From Amycolatopsis vancoresmycina (GTDB lineage Bacteria > Actinomycetota > Actinomycetes > Mycobacteriales > Pseudonocardiaceae): a DNA stretch of 64,000 bases. Position 1 is the first letter of the stretch; the number at the start of each line of letters is the position of its first letter. The notes under the pieces are model-generated. The model searched no databases and was not told the origin of the DNA. It worked only from the letters and a program-made list of their open reading frames with translations. The stretch spans positions 179,259-243,258 of the forward strand of contig NZ_JNYY01000016.1 in NCBI RefSeq assembly GCF_000716785.1. The letters run 5' to 3'. The translations under genes were made by a program, and so were the position numbers. This document shows positions 4,253 through 34,793 of the stretch, in pieces.

Positions 4253-5124
4253 TGCGGAAACCTTTCGAGCACGGGTGAGGGCGGCGCAGGGGCCGTCGAT
4301 GCGCGGGGAGAGCACATCCGGATCGGGCCTGCGACCAGGCGATTCACGAATTGCGATGGAGCAGCGGGCCGGTTCCGGCCGTCGACCCCCCGAGGCCGGG
4401 AACCGGTTCTTTTTGCCACTCGTTCAACAAATCGGCCCGGCGTGCCACCCGCCGGGCGAACCCGCTGGAACGAGCGCAAGACACAGTGATCCTTTCCACC
4501 CGGACCGCCGCGGCGAGACTCGGAAACAGTTCCGATATCGGCGGTCACCCCCGCGGTGCGATTGCGCACCAGCGACCGCCGAACGCGTGCGACAACCGGC
4601 GTTCTTCGTGCAACAGGTCGGTCATCCGGCCGTCAAGTACCCCCAAGACCAGCCGGATTGGCATCACGCTACCCAGAGAACGCGTTGCTCGTACCGCCGA
4701 ACGGAGCATTGGCGAAAATGTCCAAAAATCGCATCGCTAAGTCCGGACAGCGAGTAGTTCGTCGTCGATTTTTGTTCACTCTTCTGCCGGAAAATGTTAC
4801 CTCGATTGGGAGGTTTGAGTTTGCTGCAGTGCGCCTACCTGCACCGATCCGGCGCCAGCCGGGTGACGAGCGGAGCCAACCGGGCGGATACCCCTGCAGA
4901 AGCAAGTATCGAAATTCGTGGTCCACGTTACGGGACGTCACCCGATTGGCGGGTAACACGGACATCCGCGAAAAGATCGCGTCACGGATGCACCCGGCGC
5001 AGATCTTCACGGTCGCCGTCAAGCGGACAAACTTCACGCCGTAATGGTGACCCGGCGATTGCCGCGCCTTGCGACCCGCGGCCGGCTACCCCTACGGTCG
5101 GCGAGTCGACGAAGGGGAGGCGGC

Positions 5125-9319: not shown

Positions 9320-10282
9320 GTGGACCGAGTGGAACTGGGATTGCTGCAGGCGCTGCAGATCTACGGGCGGGTGCCGTTCAGCCAGGTGGCCGAGGTGCTC
9401 GGCGTGTCGGACCAGACCGTCGCGCGGCGCTACCAAGCGTTGCGCGCCTCGGGCGCCGTCCGGGTCGTGGGGCAGACGGCGCCGGACGCCGTCGGGGAGG
9501 AGTCCTGGCTGGTCCGGGTCGCCTGCACGCCGGGCGCGGCCGACGGGCTCGCCCGGGCGCTGGCCAACCGGCCGGAGACGTCGTGGGTGCACATCGCCTC
9601 CGGCGGCTCGGAGATCGTCTGCATGGTACGCACCCCGGCGCAGGCGGCGACGTCGTCGGTGCTCGCCCGCCTGCCCCGCACGCCGCCGGTGACCCAGGTG
9701 AGCGCGCACTGCGTCGTGCACGTCTTCTTCGGCGGCCCCACCAGCCAGCTGACCAAGTCCGGGCCGCTGACCCGGGCCCAGGCCGAGCAGTTCCGGCCAC
9801 CGGACCCGGTGCTCCCGGACGACCCGGTCGAGCTGACCGGCGGCGACCGCGCGCTGCTGGCGGAGCTGGCCCGCGACGGCCGCACCGGCTTCCGCGAGCT
9901 CGCCGCGGCGACCGGCTGGTCGCAGACGACAGTCCGGCGGCGGCTCGGCGAGCTGCGCGACTCGGGGGCGCTGTACTTCGACGTCGACTTCGCGCCCGAG
10001 GTGCTGGGGCTGCGCACGGCGGCGTCGCTGTGGCTGTCGGTGGCTCCCCGCCACCTCGAGTCCGCCGGGACCGCGCTCGCCGGGCACGCCGAGGTGGGGT
10101 TCGCCGCGGCCACGACCGGGCCGGCGAACCTGTACGTCAGCGTCCTGTGCCGCCACCCCCGCGCGCTCTACGGCTACCTCACCGGCCCGCTGGCCGCGCT
10201 GCCCGGCGTGTCCGCGGTGGAGACCGCCCCGGTCATGCGGACCCTCAAACGGTCGGAAACCGCCGTCCAGTCTTCGAAATAG
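9320..10282 (+). CDS. Lrp/AsnC-family transcriptional regulator, tandem two-domain type
   Basis: There are two HTH_AsnC-like N-terminal segments (LGLLQALQIYGRVPFSQVAEVLGVSDQTVARR... and DRALLAELARDGRTGFRELAAATGWSQTTVRRRLGELRDSG), each followed by an RAM-like domain. Confidence 0.8.
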   Translation: MDRVELGLLQALQIYGRVPFSQVAEVLGVSDQTVARRYQALRASGAVRVVGQTAPDAVGEESWLVRVACTPGAADGLARALANRPETSWVHIASGGSEIVCMVRTPAQAATSSVLARLPRTPPVTQVSAHCVVHVFFGGPTSQLTKSGPLTRAQAEQFRPPDPVLPDDPVELTGGDRALLAELARDGRTGFRELAAATGWSQTTVRRRLGELRDSGALYFDVDFAPEVLGLRTAASLWLSVAPRHLESAGTALAGHAEVGFAAATTGPANLYVSVLCRHPRALYGYLTGPLAALPGVSAVETAPVMRTLKRSETAVQSSK

Positions 10283-10379
10283 GAGGATAACGCCGAAATT
10301 CGCGGCTTTCCTGGGGTTGTTCCGGCACGGCGATGACAGTGGGGCCCGTCCTGGTGCCCTCTCTGATCGGAGACCTCCC

Positions 10380-11210
10380 ATGTCCCTCGGCCTCGGCCTG
10401 CCCGTCGCCCGCCCCGAACGGCTGCTCGACTGGGCGAAACGCGCCGACGACGGCCCGTTCCGCACCCTCGGGCTGGCGGACCGCCTCCTCTGGGACAACC
10501 CCGAGCCGCTGGTCACCCTGGCGGCGCTCGCCGGCGCGACGAGCCGGATCCGGCTGCAGACCGAGGTCCTGCTCGCCCCGCTGCGCGAACCCACGCTGCT
10601 GGCGAAGCAGGCGGCGACCCTGGACCGGCTGTCCGGCGGCCGATTCACGCTCGGCCTCGGCGTGGGCGGGCGTGCGGACGAGTTCGAGCTCGTCGGCGTG
10701 GACCTGCGCACCCGTGGCCGCCGGTTCGACGAGCAGCTGAAGCTCATGCGCGACATCTGGTCCGGCGGCCCGGTCGGCCCGGCCCCGGCCCGTCCCGGCG
10801 GTCCCGAGGTGCTGATCGGCGGGTTCGCCGAGCCGGCCCTCGACCGCGTGGCCCGGTTCGCCGACGGACTGCTGTGCGCGACCGCGCTTTCCGCGGCGGG
10901 CCGGCAGTTCGAGTACGTCGAAGCGTCCTGGGCCCGCGCCGGGCGGCCCGGACGGCCGCGGCTGGTGGGGCAGGTGACCGTCGCACTGGGCCCGGAGTCC
11001 ACTGTGGAGGAAGCGCGCGAGCAGATTCTCGCCTACTACGCGTTCGATCCGCAGCTGGCGGCCGCGACGGCCGGCCGCCTGCTGACCACCCCGGCGGCGA
11101 TCCGGGACGCGGTCGCGGAGTTCACCGCACTGGGCGCCGACGAGGTGGTCTGCTACTGCTGGTCACCGGACACCGACCAGGTGGACCGTCTCGCCGACGT
11201 CCTCTGCTGA
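10380..11210 (+). CDS. LLM-class (luciferase-like) flavin/F420-dependent oxidoreductase
   Basis: The ATG at 10380 (MSLGLGLPV) is preceded by GGAG. The sequence resembles TIM-barrel LLM proteins (RLSGGRFTLGLGVGG, EVLIGGFAEPALDRVARFADGLL). Confidence 0.7.
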   Translation: MSLGLGLPVARPERLLDWAKRADDGPFRTLGLADRLLWDNPEPLVTLAALAGATSRIRLQTEVLLAPLREPTLLAKQAATLDRLSGGRFTLGLGVGGRADEFELVGVDLRTRGRRFDEQLKLMRDIWSGGPVGPAPARPGGPEVLIGGFAEPALDRVARFADGLLCATALSAAGRQFEYVEASWARAGRPGRPRLVGQVTVALGPESTVEEAREQILAYYAFDPQLAAATAGRLLTTPAAIRDAVAEFTALGADEVVCYCWSPDTDQVDRLADVLC

Positions 11211-11415
11211 CCACGGGTGCGGCGGCGGCCGGTGGGCACAATTCCACATTCCCCCGTTCCCGCCGGCCGCCGCCGTGAAATTTTCATTCGTCGGCTCCGC
11301 CTTTCAGCCGAACGGTTCGGCGGATCCGCGCCGCCTCTTGTGAGCGTGAACATCCGATGCCACACTGCGTTCACCGTCACCCAGGAAAGGCGGCGGCCGG
11401 AAAGTTCCGCGGTGA

Positions 11416-14228
<2,813 letters not shown>

Positions 14229-27168: not shown

Positions 27169-29157
27169 TCAGCCTTCGGTTCGCTGGGTGACGATCGTGG
27201 TCGGGGTCAGCTGCGCGGGCCGGCCGGCCATCGCCGCGGTCACCGCACCGACGCTGACGTCGAGCGCGAACGCCCAGCTGAACACCACGAGGATGTCGCC
27301 GAGTGTGCCGGTCCAGGCCGGTTCGAGCCAGCGGTAGGCGGCGAGCGACAGGACAACGGCGAGCACCGCGAAGCGCGCCAGGCCCACGGCCCAGCGAACG
27401 CCGGTGACGAGGACCTGACGCCGGCCCAGGGAGACCCGCGATCGCGCCACCGCGCGCCGCGCCGGGACGTGCAGCGCGGGCCGTGCCGGCGTCCCGGTGA
27501 AACCGGCGGCCGCCTCTGCGTCCGCTGACCGGCCGAGCTCGGTCACCCCCAGCTCCAGCAGTGCGGGAAGCTGAGCGGCGGCCGCGGAAAGGGGCAGGGA
27601 TCCGGCCAGCGCCGCGCGGACAGCGGCCGCGGCGGCCGCGCCCGGTGTGCGCTTGGCTTCCGGGAGGGCGGCGGCGAACACCTCGACGGCCTGCCCGAGC
27701 CGGTCGACGAGCTCGGCTTGCGCGTGCGCGGCGCCGTACGCGGCGGTCACCACAGCGGCGGACGAGGCGTCGGACGCGGGAGCGGTCAGCGCCGCCAGCT
27801 GACGAGCCCGGCCGGCGACCGGGCCGAACACGGGAGCGGGCCGGGCGGTGAGGACCTGCGCGAGCTGTCCTGCGCCCTCGGTGATTTCGTCCTGGTACTG
27901 GCGCGCGCTCCCGGCGATCAGGCCGACGTCCGTCTCGAGTTCGTCGAGCGCGGTCCGCGCACGGGAGAGGTTTCCGCGGTCCAGCAGCCCGTCGAGCTCG
28001 TCGAGGCGCTTCCGCGCCTTGGCCAGGAGGCCGGCCCACGGCACGGGTCCGGGCACCGGCCGATCCGGGCGCACCACCTTTTCGAGCTCGGGCAGGGCCG
28101 AGGCGACCTCCGCCAGTCCGGTGTCGAGTTCCTCGAGCGCGGTGTTGGCTCGGGTTTCGGCCTCGGTGACGAGGGTGTCCAGTTCTGCCGCCGGGCGCAG
28201 CAGCCACCGGCGGGACTTCGCGTCGAGGTCGGTGAGCAGGGCGCCGATTTCCCGGCGGAAGTGGTCGTCCTCCCGGCCGGCGGTCAGCTCTGCGAGCCGG
28301 GCGGCGAGCTCGGTGGCGCGGCCGGCGGCCGCGGCGCGGTCCTGCACGGCCACCAGGATCCGGCGGACGGACACCCCGGCGAACAGCCCCAGCAGGGCGA
28401 ACACCACGATCAGCGCCGGATCGCGCCGGGTGGTCACCCGGAACTGCACGGTCAGCGGCCGGGCCAGCTGCGCGGAGTCGAGCTGCACGGTGCGGGTCAC
28501 GGTCCCCAGCGGTGGCGTGCCGGTGATCCGGTACGGCAGCGTGAGCGCGGCCGGGCCGGTCACGGGCATGGCCGGGCCGGTGACCACGACCTGGTCGGCG
28601 CTGCTGTCCAGCCCGGTCACGAGGAGCTCGGTGATCCGCGTGTCGGGCCCGGCCCCGACGTGCAGTTCGGGCAGCTCCTCGCGGGTACCGCCGATGCCCC
28701 ACTCCGGGAACCACACGGTGCGCTTGACCTCGATCGCCGCCGTGGCCTGCAGATCGGCTCCTGGCCGCTTGAAGACGACGTCGACGAGTTCCGAACGCCC
28801 GCCGTCACCGACGGCGACCGTCGCCGTGTAGTCGCCGACGCGCTTCAGATCGTCGACGCGCACGTCGAAGCGCAGCGCCGGCACGGCGGGCTCGATCCGC
28901 ACGCCGATCGCCTGCATCGTCTCCGCCGGAACGGGCCTGCCGTCCCGCACGACCCGGACGACCCGGGCGGTGAGTCCCGTGACGGCGACCCCGGGTGCCG
29001 GGGTGAGCGGCAGCAGCACGACCGCATCGGCTTCGGCAGGCAGCGTCGCCGACGCCCCGGACGACAGCTCCACCAGGTCGTCCGCGCTCGCCGGGCCGGC
29101 CGCGAGCACCACGGCACCGATCGCGAACGCACCGGCGAGCAGGATCGACCGCCTCAT
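27169..29157 (-). CDS. Signal-peptide protein with an extracytoplasmic beta-rich domain, a TM helix, a long cytoplasmic coiled coil and two C-terminal TM helices (662 aa)
   Basis: The ATG at 29157 is preceded by GGAGG and overlaps the CHAT gene stop (ATGA). The signal peptide is MRRSILLAGAFAIGAVVLAAGPASA and the TM helix is ALIVVFALLGLFAGVSV. The coiled-coil region of about 330 aa is rich in Ala, Leu, Glu and Arg. The upstream part of the track ORF (to 29940) is junk. Confidence 0.6.
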   Translation of the reverse strand: MRRSILLAGAFAIGAVVLAAGPASADDLVELSSGASATLPAEADAVVLLPLTPAPGVAVTGLTARVVRVVRDGRPVPAETMQAIGVRIEPAVPALRFDVRVDDLKRVGDYTATVAVGDGGRSELVDVVFKRPGADLQATAAIEVKRTVWFPEWGIGGTREELPELHVGAGPDTRITELLVTGLDSSADQVVVTGPAMPVTGPAALTLPYRITGTPPLGTVTRTVQLDSAQLARPLTVQFRVTTRRDPALIVVFALLGLFAGVSVRRILVAVQDRAAAAGRATELAARLAELTAGREDDHFRREIGALLTDLDAKSRRWLLRPAAELDTLVTEAETRANTALEELDTGLAEVASALPELEKVVRPDRPVPGPVPWAGLLAKARKRLDELDGLLDRGNLSRARTALDELETDVGLIAGSARQYQDEITEGAGQLAQVLTARPAPVFGPVAGRARQLAALTAPASDASSAAVVTAAYGAAHAQAELVDRLGQAVEVFAAALPEAKRTPGAAAAAAVRAALAGSLPLSAAAAQLPALLELGVTELGRSADAEAAAGFTGTPARPALHVPARRAVARSRVSLGRRQVLVTGVRWAVGLARFAVLAVVLSLAAYRWLEPAWTGTLGDILVVFSWAFALDVSVGAVTAAMAGRPAQLTPTTIVTQRTEG

Positions 29158-31001
29158 GAGGCCTCCAGGACGACGTCGGCCGAGCCGAAGGCGACGAACG
29201 CCAGCGCCGGCACCTGTTTCTCCGCGAGGAGGTGCTGCCGGGCCGCCTGCATGGCCGCTCCGACGCTGGCCCCGCTCCCGGCGAGCGTGGCGACCAGGCA
29301 CCGGGCGAACTGGCGGGCGTGATCGGTCATGATCACGCATTCGGTCGCGACCACCCCGCTGGCCCCGACCGCGGTCAGCGCCGAGACGTGGTTGGTGAGG
29401 TTGCCGGGAAGCAGCACGCCCGAGCCGCAGGCCAGCAGCAGGATCAGCGGCGACGGCGCGGTCCACGACCCGGAGACGACCCGCTGTTCGGTGATCATCC
29501 GCGGGGTCAGCCGGATTTCGGCGGTGCCGCAGTCGATCTCCTGCGTGTCCGCGTCGTGGTGACCGAGGATGGTGACGACGGGCGCGCGGTCCCCCGGGTC
29601 CCACAGCAGGGACAGCAGCCGGTGTTCCTTCCCGAGTTTCCGCGGCGCACCGATCGCGGCCAGGTCCGAGACCAGGCCGGTCACCTCGGCGTCGACGACG
29701 CCCAGCGCGAGGTCGACCTTGAGCTTGCCGCGGTGGGGTACGAGGTGGCGGGCGAGGTCGCCGGACCCGTCGAGGCGTTCCTCGACCTGGTGGCGCACGC
29801 CCCAGAAGCCGCGGGCGCAGATCACCCGGCTTTCGCGGTGGTGGCCGCACCGCTTCCCCGAGCCGGGCGGGTCGAATCCCCAGCACACGGGTCCTTCCGG
29901 AGGGCCCGCCGGCAGGAGCCAGTCGTACAGCAGGGTCCACGGCACGGAGTGGTGCCGCTCCGCGCGGGTGATCTGGATGATCTCGTCGGATCGGAGGGTC
30001 AGCTCGCGAAGCGGCTCCCCCGCCGCACCGGGCAGTTCGCCGAACAGCGCCGCCCAGACCGCCCAGCCGCCCTCGGCGAGGGCGCGCAGGGCCGCGTCCG
30101 GCCCGAGCGTTCCCCGGGCCGCGTCCGTCATCGTGTCGCGCAGCGCGGGGAGGACCCTCGTCCGCACGTCGTCGTTCACCGGGAAGTGGAACACGGTTCC
30201 GGTGGACTTGACGAACACCCGGTGCCGGCCGTCACCGGCGTCCGCGTTGACGACCAGCGAAACGTACCGCGGCCGGAAGTCGGCCACATTGGCCCACGCC
30301 GTCGTCGCGGAGTACTCCAGCCGGGCCGCGGTCACCTCTTCGTCGAACCACTGCTCCCGTTCCCCGACCCGGGCGACCAGCCGGTAGGTCTGGATCAGGT
30401 TGTCCCGGTGCAGGACGTTGACCCGCACCCACGCCTCGCCGGGCTCGGCGGGTGCGCGCAGCTCGAAGACGACGGTCTCGGACGGCCCGGCCGGGGGCAG
30501 CCGCAGCGGCCGCACCGGCGGACCGTCCACGGTGAACCCGCCGGTGTAGATCACCACTTCCAGTTCGTGCCCCGACGCGGAATCCGGCAGCAGCGGGTCG
30601 ATGCCCGGTTGCGGCCCGCGTACCACCGACCACGGCGACCGGCCGCCGATCCGCGCGTCCAGCAGGTACTGCCCGCCTGCCTGCAGCGCGCACCGGTCGC
30701 CGACGAAGGGCGTCTTTTCGGCCGCCTCGATGCCGGCACCGCGGCGGAGGGTCAGGTCGAAGACCCGCGGCGGGTCCGGAAAGATGTACTTCCAATCGAA
30801 TTCGATTCTGTTGTACCGCGCCCGCGGGAAATCCCTCCGGAGCAGCACATCCGCGCTCAGCAGCCCGACGACCGCGGGCAGCGCAGCCAGCACCAGCAGC
30901 CACACGAGTTGCGCCCGGCCCGCTTCGACCAGGACGGCGGCAAGGACGAAGGCCAGCGTCGTCACGACAGCGACCAAGGCCTGCAGCCAGCGGATGCGCA
31001 C
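29154..31001 (-). CDS. Membrane-anchored CHAT-domain (caspase-like, clan CD) peptidase
   Basis: The N-terminus has 2 TM helices (LQALVAVVTTLAFVLAAVLV, LVWLLVLAALPAVVGLLSA). The C-terminal CHAT domain has a catalytic His in ILGHHDAD and a Cys in LILLLACGSGV. It is followed by the typical CHAT tail ALTAVGASGVVATECVIMTDHARQFARCLVATLAGSGASVGAAMQAARQHL. Confidence 0.75.
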   Translation of the reverse strand: MRIRWLQALVAVVTTLAFVLAAVLVEAGRAQLVWLLVLAALPAVVGLLSADVLLRRDFPRARYNRIEFDWKYIFPDPPRVFDLTLRRGAGIEAAEKTPFVGDRCALQAGGQYLLDARIGGRSPWSVVRGPQPGIDPLLPDSASGHELEVVIYTGGFTVDGPPVRPLRLPPAGPSETVVFELRAPAEPGEAWVRVNVLHRDNLIQTYRLVARVGEREQWFDEEVTAARLEYSATTAWANVADFRPRYVSLVVNADAGDGRHRVFVKSTGTVFHFPVNDDVRTRVLPALRDTMTDAARGTLGPDAALRALAEGGWAVWAALFGELPGAAGEPLRELTLRSDEIIQITRAERHHSVPWTLLYDWLLPAGPPEGPVCWGFDPPGSGKRCGHHRESRVICARGFWGVRHQVEERLDGSGDLARHLVPHRGKLKVDLALGVVDAEVTGLVSDLAAIGAPRKLGKEHRLLSLLWDPGDRAPVVTILGHHDADTQEIDCGTAEIRLTPRMITEQRVVSGSWTAPSPLILLLACGSGVLLPGNLTNHVSALTAVGASGVVATECVIMTDHARQFARCLVATLAGSGASVGAAMQAARQHLLAEKQVPALAFVAFGSADVVLEAS

Positions 31002-31103
31002 CGCTCCTCACCTCCCGCCACACGCGGTCACAAGGGTGAGTCGCGCGTGCGCCGGACGGCGTAACCGGGTCAGCCTCACACTTCGATCACGAAAGCGGCC
31101 GGC

Positions 31104-34202: not shown

Positions 34203-34793
34203 TTACTCTTCCACGGCGCGGCCGGCGTTCGCGCGAAGAACGGGCATCGCCAGATCGTCGACGACGTGTTCGGCGAATCCCTCGTCCAGCGGCAGCCGCC
34301 ACAGCCACCGCATGAACATCACCGACGCGACGACCTCTTCGAACAGCCCGGCGTCGGCCGGGCCGGGCAGTTCCCCCCGTTCGACGGCCCGGCCGACCGC
34401 CTCCGCCGGGAGCCGCGCGCCGCTGGAGAACCGGGCCTCGAGCTCGTCGACGAGCTCCGGGTCGGCGGCGCGGGCCTGCACGAGGCCGACCGCGAGCCGG
34501 CCGTCGAACCCGGTGAGCACGTCGGCGAAGCGGCGGGTGTGGGCGAGCAGGTCGCCGCGGAACGTGCCGGTGTCGACGGTCCACTCGGTCTGCGTGCCGT
34601 GGTAGCGGGCCATGGCGGCGACGGTGATCTCCCGCTTGTTGCGCCACCGGCGGTAGATCGTGGCCTTCGACGTGCCCGACCGGGCGGCGACGGCGTCGAT
34701 CGTCATCGACACGTACCCGGCCTCGGCCAGCAGCTCCAGCACGGCGTCGAGGATGCGGGCGTCCCGGGTGGGATCCAGGGGGCGAACACTCAT
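34203..34793 (-). CDS. TetR-family transcriptional regulator
   Basis: The HTH is ILDAVLELLAEAGYVSMTIDAVAARSGTSKATIYRRWRNKREI. It is divergent from the ADH gene. Confidence 0.8.
   Translation of the reverse strand: MSVRPLDPTRDARILDAVLELLAEAGYVSMTIDAVAARSGTSKATIYRRWRNKREITVAAMARYHGTQTEWTVDTGTFRGDLLAHTRRFADVLTGFDGRLAVGLVQARAADPELVDELEARFSSGARLPAEAVGRAVERGELPGPADAGLFEEVVASVMFMRWLWRLPLDEGFAEHVVDDLAMPVLRANAGRAVEE

Follow-up and report, generated by a model that had tools for sequence, protein, structure and literature searches.

A divergent CHAT-type cysteine protease with a lineage-specific membrane hairpin and its conserved transmembrane partner in Amycolatopsis vancoresmycina

Described membrane-bound CHAT and caspase-like systems

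CHAT proteases are bacterial relatives of caspases and separase, and they recently emerged as the switch in several immune systems (Craspase, SAVED-CHAT and gasdermin activation). Here we analyze a CHAT-type protease of 615 residues and the 662-residue membrane protein encoded directly after it (hereafter, the partner), both located on the minus strand of a 64,000-nucleotide stretch of the Amycolatopsis vancoresmycina genome (contig NZ_JNYY01000016.1, positions 179,259 to 243,258; hereafter, the window). Our assessment, set slightly above even, is that the protein is an active, cytoplasm-facing protease of the CHAT/separase/Csx29 type, tied to the inner membrane face by a transmembrane hairpin and forming one half of a conserved two-gene module. 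A first-pass annotation of the window had presented the membrane tether as unusual for a CHAT protein, a view that is contradicted by the precedents of HetF (PMC8406250) and DdvA (PMC11506125).

HetF of Anabaena, one of the proteins from which the CHAT domain takes its name, has a transmembrane segment and has been shown to be a membrane protein (PMC8406250). The likeness between HetF and the window protease, both of them CHAT proteins with a transmembrane segment, lies at the level of the fold: HetF consists of an N-terminal CHAT domain, one transmembrane helix and C-terminal tetratricopeptide repeats (TPRs), plays a role in the divisome with FtsI (PMC8406250), and has neither the β-sandwich of the window protease nor a partner of the kind encoded in the window. 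DdvA of Myxococcus xanthus is a transmembrane anti-sigma factor with a periplasmic TPR-CHAT region behind one transmembrane helix, and the spacing of its catalytic dyad (H862/C907; PMC11506125) is nearly equal to that of the window protease (His481/Cys525, 44 residues). In contrast to the window protease, which is predicted to be cytoplasmic behind its hairpin, DdvA combines a cytoplasmic zinc anti-sigma domain with a partner sigma factor of the extracytoplasmic function (ECF) type. No anti-sigma, sigma or TPR domain was found in the window protease or its partner (Pfam, NCBIfam and PADLOC scans for TPRs in the protease), no sigma factor gene is adjacent to them in the window, and sigma-70 region 4 domains occur in only 2 of 83 immediate neighbors of related loci.

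The window protease shares 11-15% identity with separase and with Csx29, the TPR-CHAT "Craspase" protease of type III-E CRISPR systems. Instead of the TPR/ARM solenoid of these proteins it presents a β-sandwich and a transmembrane hairpin, and it is further set apart from them by a CCHC insert peculiar to its family and by a GFWGxRH motif. The genetic context of Cas7-11/gRAMP, Csx30 or securin is likewise absent, with no cas genes among the neighbors in the window or at 25 related loci. Pfam and PADLOC scans yielded no SAVED domain in the protease and no gasdermin match in the partner or the other neighbors, and the locus contains no cyclase/CD-NTase or CRISPR genes.

The account of the EACC1-caspase system (Kaur et al. 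2020; PMC7159879) describes a computationally predicted two-gene module, common in actinobacteria, composed of a membrane protein, proposed to be a sensor, and a caspase-superfamily peptidase, with transmembrane helices in a third of the peptidases. In that account, the gene for a small single-transmembrane protein lies 5' of the peptidase gene, and the peptidase has an N-terminal caspase domain followed by variable C-terminal effectors, whereas the window module has the protease first, its CHAT region at the C-terminus, and a 3' partner of ~700 residues with three transmembrane helices and an ectodomain. Neither the order of the genes nor the build of the partner nor the β-sandwich/CCHC features of the window module recur in HetF, DdvA or EACC1-caspase. 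That a CHAT protease should carry a transmembrane anchor, the feature flagged by the first-pass annotation, is no surprise in itself; the anchor is a variation of one lineage, and precedents exist.

Fold, catalytic residues and predicted topology of the protease

The gene encoding the protease is an intact 615-codon reading frame (third-position GC 0.92, second-position GC 0.50, in a genome and window of ~72% GC), and its product is 100% identical to hypothetical protein P0001 of A. vancoresmycina. The frame and the motifs quoted by the first-pass annotation are real, with RRDFPRARYNRIEFDWKYIFPDPP found at residues 55-78, ILGHHDAD at 478-485 and LLLACGSG at 521-528. The Shine-Dalgarno-like sequence that precedes the GTG codon (Table 1) backs this long start, which includes the hairpin.

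The family to which the protease belongs is large. An exhaustive hidden Markov model (HMM) search with a profile built from the first seven relatives returned 4276 cluster representatives with a threshold of E<=1e-3, of which 738 remain at E<=1e-30, overturning the notion of a tiny family that had followed from word-indexed homolog searches, which gave just 7 relatives. Among the 150 best family representatives, lengths of 850-1050 residues predominate, and the typical member, of ~950 residues, begins with a soluble N-terminal domain of ~290 residues that carries an HDxPLHEA motif and belongs to no Pfam family.

The AlphaFold model of the window protease obtained with a 61-sequence alignment has a mean predicted local distance difference test score (pLDDT) of 88.2 and a predicted template modeling score (pTM) of 0.84, compared with an unusable model (pLDDT 58.5) from a 7-sequence alignment. 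The predicted C-terminal lobe has a caspase/hemoglobinase fold of the separase/Csx29 type, in which His481 and then Cys525 each lie at the C-terminal end of a core β-strand, as in the CHAT fold: the GH motif ends strand 475-483 and the LLLACGSG motif ends strand 519-525. His481 is retained in 60 of 61 relatives and Cys525 in all 61. Furthermore, a search of PDB chains with the 61-sequence family profile aligned the family motif VLLlaCeSaa with VLLMGCSSAA of separase (E=0.0016), the separase Cys motif being the only part matched; its LLMGCSS segment is what we take to be the catalytic Cys motif of separase. The same search returned nothing with a 7-sequence profile and noise with the homolog P0011 alone. 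Taken together, these data place the His and Cys at dyad positions, as the first-pass annotation had supposed, and its suggestion that the protease is probably active is reasonable given the conserved dyad and the predicted fold.

The description of the CHAT domain as canonical, on the other hand, does not hold, since Pfam, NCBIfam and PADLOC scans of the window protease produced no CHAT match even at E<=10; the sole library match was a weak one to Peptidase_C25 (E=0.055). The window protease falls below the gathering score of the Pfam CHAT model (PF12770), but several homologs exceed the 24-bit cut-off (P0011, 38 bits; P0056, 37.5 bits; P0022, 25.3 bits), and their matches span the residues aligned to His481 and Cys525. 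As regards the Pfam model, its membership of the CHAT family and clan CD would thus follow by transitive homology only. The catalytic lobe also contains a putative CCHC zinc knuckle followed by an invariant GFWGxRHxVE motif. Its three cysteines (C373, C385 and C395) are kept in 61 of 61 relatives and H387 in 59 of 61, a pattern suggesting that the cluster may bind zinc.

The region between hairpin and catalytic lobe had been annotated as a linker of ~270 residues. It is instead made up of a 24-residue tether, a conserved β-sandwich and a second conserved folded region. The β-sandwich (strands over residues 80-213, pLDDT >90) is conserved in 61 of 61 relatives, with Y112 and Q204 invariant, and shows weaker fold matches to Ig-like/MG/FW domains. 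The following region of strands and helices is also conserved in relatives and is probably the N-terminal lobe of a separase/Csx29-type protease module. Only the poorly conserved tether is a true linker, with pLDDT <50 over residues 42-70 and a ratio of nonsynonymous to synonymous substitution rates (dN/dS) of ~1 or higher. In the folded domains, dN/dS between orthologs is 0.2-0.5, indicating that the protease gene is not decaying.

The N-terminus of the protease contains two hydrophobic stretches (residues ~5-25 and 32-54; Kyte-Doolittle 19-residue means reaching 2.5), which AlphaFold models as helices 2-26 and 30-47. They are separated by a loop, EAGRAQ, and their outer flanks bear arginines (MRIR... 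and ...RRDFPRAR). Because positive charge is present at both outer ends, the positive-inside rule predicts an N-in/C-in hairpin, with the catalytic part facing the cytoplasm. The double transmembrane anchor proposed by the first-pass annotation is therefore backed by hydropathy, the positive-inside rule and the AlphaFold helices, on which our transmembrane call is based, and it is unusual within its own family. Among 155 proteins compared, the hairpin is present in three (the window protein P0001; P0002, 87% identity; and P0004, 63% identity) and absent from the other 152; this Amycolatopsis clade is the only one in that set to carry a hairpin in place of the ~290-residue soluble domain.

That a single span crosses the membrane, or that the first stretch is a signal sequence, is very unlikely. 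Either arrangement would leave the CHAT domain outside the cytoplasm, where it would meet the partner ectodomain, and would find a precedent in the periplasmic CHAT domain of DdvA (PMC11506125) and some plausibility in the size of the partner ectodomain. However, the two separate ~20-residue stretches, the shortness of the loop and the positive outer ends speak against it, and ~150 homologs without signal peptide or transmembrane helix must be cytoplasmic. The three conserved cysteines and one histidine of the invariant cluster suit a reducing compartment such as the cytoplasm. Cytoplasmic placement is also favored by the natural fusion P0117 described below, in which the protease part comes after a cytoplasmic region and an even number (two) of transmembrane helices.

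The hydrophobic hairpin is retained, despite sequence drift, in all four Amycolatopsis orthologs, down to 63% identity. Its dN/dS is 0.66-0.85 (against L003, L010 and L009), with hydrophobicity and flanking arginines preserved throughout, a pattern consistent with a simple anchor within a gene that is still under selection. In one of these comparisons (L010), the hairpin segment shows a dS of ~0.79, versus ~0.2 across the remaining gene, which suggests local replacement or misalignment. The ortholog at this locus, P0003 of Amycolatopsis sp. NPDC004625 (L010 ~9995-11821, the same as L008), is annotated by NCBI from a start ~100 codons late, giving a 510-residue product without the hairpin; when re-read, its open reading frame also opens with a two-helix hydrophobic N-terminus.

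Less probable again is the possibility that the window protease is a truncated, decaying remnant of a 950-residue member whose hydrophobic N-terminus is accidental. The clade does lack the ~290-residue N-terminal domain of nearly all relatives, its hairpin and tether evolve almost neutrally, and the NCBI start of P0003 lies downstream of the hairpin. Against decay, four lineages, the most distant at 63% identity, preserve an unbroken reading frame with two hydrophobic helices and flanking arginines; the dyad, the CCHC residues and GFWGxRH are retained; dN/dS in the domains is 0.2-0.5; the partner gene is intact and coupled; and a good Shine-Dalgarno sequence stands before the long start. The window protein is a divergent separase/CHAT-type cysteine protease with a lineage-specific membrane anchor.

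A conserved two-gene module and a natural fusion

The start of the partner gene overlaps the protease stop codon (ATGA). As judged by hydropathy, the partner begins with a Sec-type signal peptide (…GPASA/DD) and continues with an ectodomain of ~220 residues, a transmembrane helix (residues 245-272) with positive charge behind it, ~310 residues of helical cytoplasmic region and a C-terminal transmembrane hairpin (residues 582-642) with a conserved WxGT..D..F.WAF.LD motif. This motif, the first transmembrane helix and the end of the ectodomain (PLGTV) are the most conserved parts of the protein, which Pfam, NCBIfam and PADLOC scans assigned to no family. A derivation of the protease hairpin from this C-terminal hairpin was considered and rejected, as by eye the protease hairpin lacks the WxGT/WAFxLD motif.

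Among the contigs first fetched, a partner homolog lies directly 3' of the protease in every homolog with readable context. We combined these contigs with a scan of one genome per species for the pattern C[VIA]xGFWGxRH, which yielded 35 loci that constitute a sample rather than a census. In total, 28 non-redundant loci encode a partner homolog directly downstream of the protease on the same strand, and they are distributed over the Actinomycetota, Acidobacteriota, Bacteroidota, Myxococcota, Nitrospirota, Pseudomonadota, Chloroflexota, Methylomirabilota, Gemmatimonadota and Desulfobacterota. A 4-nt overlap between protease stop and partner start is frequent at these loci, and the layout of signal peptide, transmembrane helix and C-terminal transmembrane segment does not vary. 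The 662-residue neighbor that the first-pass annotation had mentioned in passing is thus a real, conserved partner. Neither all-against-all clustering nor Pfam and PADLOC scans of the 83 immediate neighbors at 25 loci revealed a third conserved gene beside the pair: no family occurs at more than two loci, many neighbors are housekeeping or metabolic genes (which give the strongest matches), and few are defense-like or mobile. Literature searches returned no match for the protease-partner combination. Protease and partner appear to form a conserved two-gene module that is apparently undescribed in the resources searched.

A natural fusion of the two proteins is found in P0117, a metagenomic protein of 1152 residues. 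Its residues 21-563, which include two transmembrane helices, are partner-like and cover positions 23-695 of the partner HMM, and residues 676-1152 correspond to the protease and keep both the GH motif and the Cys. In this protein a copy of the partner replaces the usual N-terminal domain of the protease, and a separate partner gene overlaps the end of the fusion gene (Table 1). Three N-terminal modules, namely the soluble ~290-residue domain, the transmembrane hairpin and a partner paralog, hence precede the same β-sandwich/CHAT core, and a partner gene follows the protease in each of the three forms examined. From these architectures we infer that the N-terminal module may serve to dock the protease, at the membrane, onto the partner, and that partners may self-associate.

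Neighboring genes and possible function

Upstream of the protease, on the same strand, the window encodes a flotillin-like SPFH/Band-7 protein and a GUN4-domain protein (Table 1), and the first-pass annotation had suggested co-expressing the protease with the former and with the partner to identify substrates. A single operon of the GUN4, SPFH, protease and partner genes, in which the SPFH protein would serve as scaffold or cage for the membrane-held protease, is quite unlikely. SPFH proteins often pair with membrane proteases, as when HflK/C cages FtsH or stomatin accompanies an NfeD protease. The four genes share one strand; the SPFH-protease gap is 102 nt, with no terminator seen in a promoter/terminator scan or by RNA folding; membrane anchors are present in SPFH protein, protease and partner alike; and three Amycolatopsis genomes or assemblies preserve this arrangement. 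These three are close relatives (82-88% identity), however, so that their synteny carries little weight, and outside the A. vancoresmycina clade SPFH and GUN4 genes were not found at any protease-partner locus, including that of the 63%-identical hairpin ortholog (L009), which has no SPFH gene upstream. Conversely, in Saccharothrix, A. xylanica, Actinocorallia and a metagenome (L047-L050) neither protease nor partner accompanies the coupled GUN4-SPFH pair, and the 73 homologs of the GUN4 protein belong to the Pseudonocardiales and Streptosporangiales. SPFH-protease adjacency is thus confined to the A. vancoresmycina clade and does not amount to conserved co-occurrence. Because the GUN4-SPFH pair occurs alone elsewhere and other family loci have no SPFH gene, two independent two-gene modules probably adjoin each other in the window, with the SPFH protein outside the protease module, even though the SPFH and protease genes may be co-transcribed.

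The SPFH protein displays, at residues ~80-330 between its transmembrane helix and Band_7, three apparent tandem repeats of ~70 residues with no Pfam match (…VPDG.VG.VKAKV…HVECD.FRDGV.FLAGGGE.G.QQQ.LT.G.Y.INTE.F.V.TV…). The ~240-residue N-terminal domain of the GUN4 protein has no Pfam or PDB match, and PADLOC links the GUN4 part to PD-T4-6. A by-eye likeness of this N-terminal half to class III nucleotide cyclases was set aside for lack of Pfam or PDB support, its only echo being the name of one homolog (P0194, "Class 3 adenylate c…").

Table 1. Coordinates of the features discussed, in the window unless another locus is given.
Feature	Position	Strand	Remarks
Protease gene, 615 aa	29154..31001	minus	GTG start at 31001, TGA stop 29154-29156; frame intact
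Shine-Dalgarno-like sequence GGGAGGTGAGGAG	31004..31016	minus	read from sequence; GGAGG/GAGGAG, 3-14 nt before GTG
Predicted two-helix transmembrane hairpin, residues ~3-54	30840..30995	minus	hydropathy and AlphaFold; predicted N-in/C-in
Tether, residues 55-78	30768..30839	minus	
β-sandwich domain, residues ~79-215	30357..30767	minus	AlphaFold
Strands-plus-helices region, residues ~216-335	29997..30356	minus	
Catalytic CHAT (caspase-fold) lobe, residues 336-615	29157..29996	minus	
Putative CCHC zinc knuckle, C373 to C395	29817..29885	minus	
Codon of His481	29559..29561	minus	
Codon of Cys525	29427..29429	minus	
Partner gene, 662 aa	27169..29157	minus	
SPFH/Band-7 (flotillin-like) gene, 597 aa	31104..32897	minus	Pfam Band_7 5e-14; N-terminal transmembrane helix
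GUN4-domain gene, ~393 aa	32899..34080	minus	Pfam GUN4 1.2e-11; translationally coupled to SPFH gene
TetR gene	34203-34793		
STAND NTPase gene, NLR-like, 1044 aa	35913-39047	minus	NNH7 N-terminal helical domain (Pfam 1.5e-58) and NACHT
P0117 fusion gene	L051 1270-4728		separate partner gene 4725-4901, 4-nt overlap
CYTH genes	L001 2561-3124; L002 1681-2217		
ISL3-family transposase genes	L001 1249-2400, 8345-9580		
Caspase-FGE-sulfatase gene	L031 6428-8380		Pyrinomonadaceae
Distant-branch loci	L045 4846-8036; L046 316-7758; L036, L039, L040, L042, L043		L045, Rhodococcus plasmid pN2; L046, Streptomyces plasmid

Several observations concern individual loci of the wider family. Directly upstream of the protease-partner pair of a Pyrinomonadaceae genome (L031) lies a gene for a caspase (Peptidase_C14) with a fused FGE-sulfatase domain; the caspase-FGE-sulfatase architecture has been described for conflict systems of multicellular bacteria. 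In a soil-metagenome relative of 30% identity (L001/L002), a divergently oriented CYTH-domain gene lies just upstream of the protease, and ISL3-family transposase genes bracket the CYTH, protease and partner genes, an arrangement that suggests a mobile cassette. Lastly, a distant branch of the β-sandwich/CHAT superfamily (23-27% identity) carries other N-terminal modules, for one of which the annotation is leucine-rich repeat. In part of the branch the adjacent gene is a small conserved downstream open reading frame of ~110 residues rather than the large membrane partner, and one Streptomyces plasmid (L046) encodes two distant-branch CHAT genes in tandem.

Part of this context bears on the main rival explanation, which we regard as unlikely: an abortive-infection or suicide device, gasdermin-like in its logic, in which a danger signal would lead the protease to cut the helical region of the partner and the C-terminal transmembrane hairpin would then permeabilize the membrane. 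CHAT proteases activate effectors in known immunity, and the structural neighbors of the window protease are Csx29 and SAVED-CHAT. The rare and patchy distribution of the module over many phyla, the ISL3 transposases flanking it in L001 and L002, the plasmid-borne distant relatives in actinomycetes with their other N-terminal modules, and the fairly high dN/dS (0.2-0.5) would all accord with such a device, as would the conservation of the partner's C-terminal hairpin, its most conserved part. The window also encodes an NNH7-NACHT protein ~5 kb upstream of the module, behind a TetR gene. That gene, however, is not conserved beside the module in related Amycolatopsis genomes, where a MarR gene is found instead. 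Moreover, neither protease nor partner has a PADLOC match, matches to defense models among the 83 neighbors are few and fall in no family that recurs at more than two loci, and no homolog of the protease was detected in 50,697 phage records.

The reading that we prefer, of a cytoplasm-facing protease held at the membrane as half of a two-gene module, would work as follows. The hairpin would hold the protease against the inner membrane face, and the partner, with its secreted β-rich ectodomain, would act as a transmembrane sensor and regulator, and probably as a substrate too. The partner would relay an envelope event to the protease, which would respond by cutting the partner's cytoplasmic region or other targets. 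Fold, conserved dyad, hairpin, gene coupling, phyletic spread and fusion are what the analysis shows; topology, physical contact of protease and partner, direction of signaling and substrate are what we infer. Four observations weigh against this proposal. The near-neutral evolution of the hairpin (dN/dS 0.66-0.85) suits a plain anchor more than a specific docking interface between transmembrane helices; the fusion is a single metagenomic sequence from one contig; conservation is poor in the partner's cytoplasmic region, where no conserved cleavage motif is obvious; and the mostly housekeeping neighborhoods provide no functional pointer.

A more specific version, which we put forward tentatively, is that of a "receptor-caspase" module, in which a partner with an extracytoplasmic sensing domain would directly control a separase/Csx29-like protease at the inner membrane face, so that an envelope event (for example phage attack, cell-wall damage or contact with kin) would result in a proteolytic signal or in a decision to die. 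The hairpin and the fusion would then be alternative hard-wirings of the same complex, and the soluble domain, the transmembrane hairpin and the fusion offer ready-made natural constructs for the docking idea. The 738 representatives found at E<=1e-30 make up a large subfamily that is uncharacterized in the resources searched and is coupled to a membrane protein family without Pfam, NCBIfam or PADLOC match. If protease and partner do form a transmembrane sensor-protease unit, they would constitute a new bacterial link from the cell envelope to regulated proteolysis.

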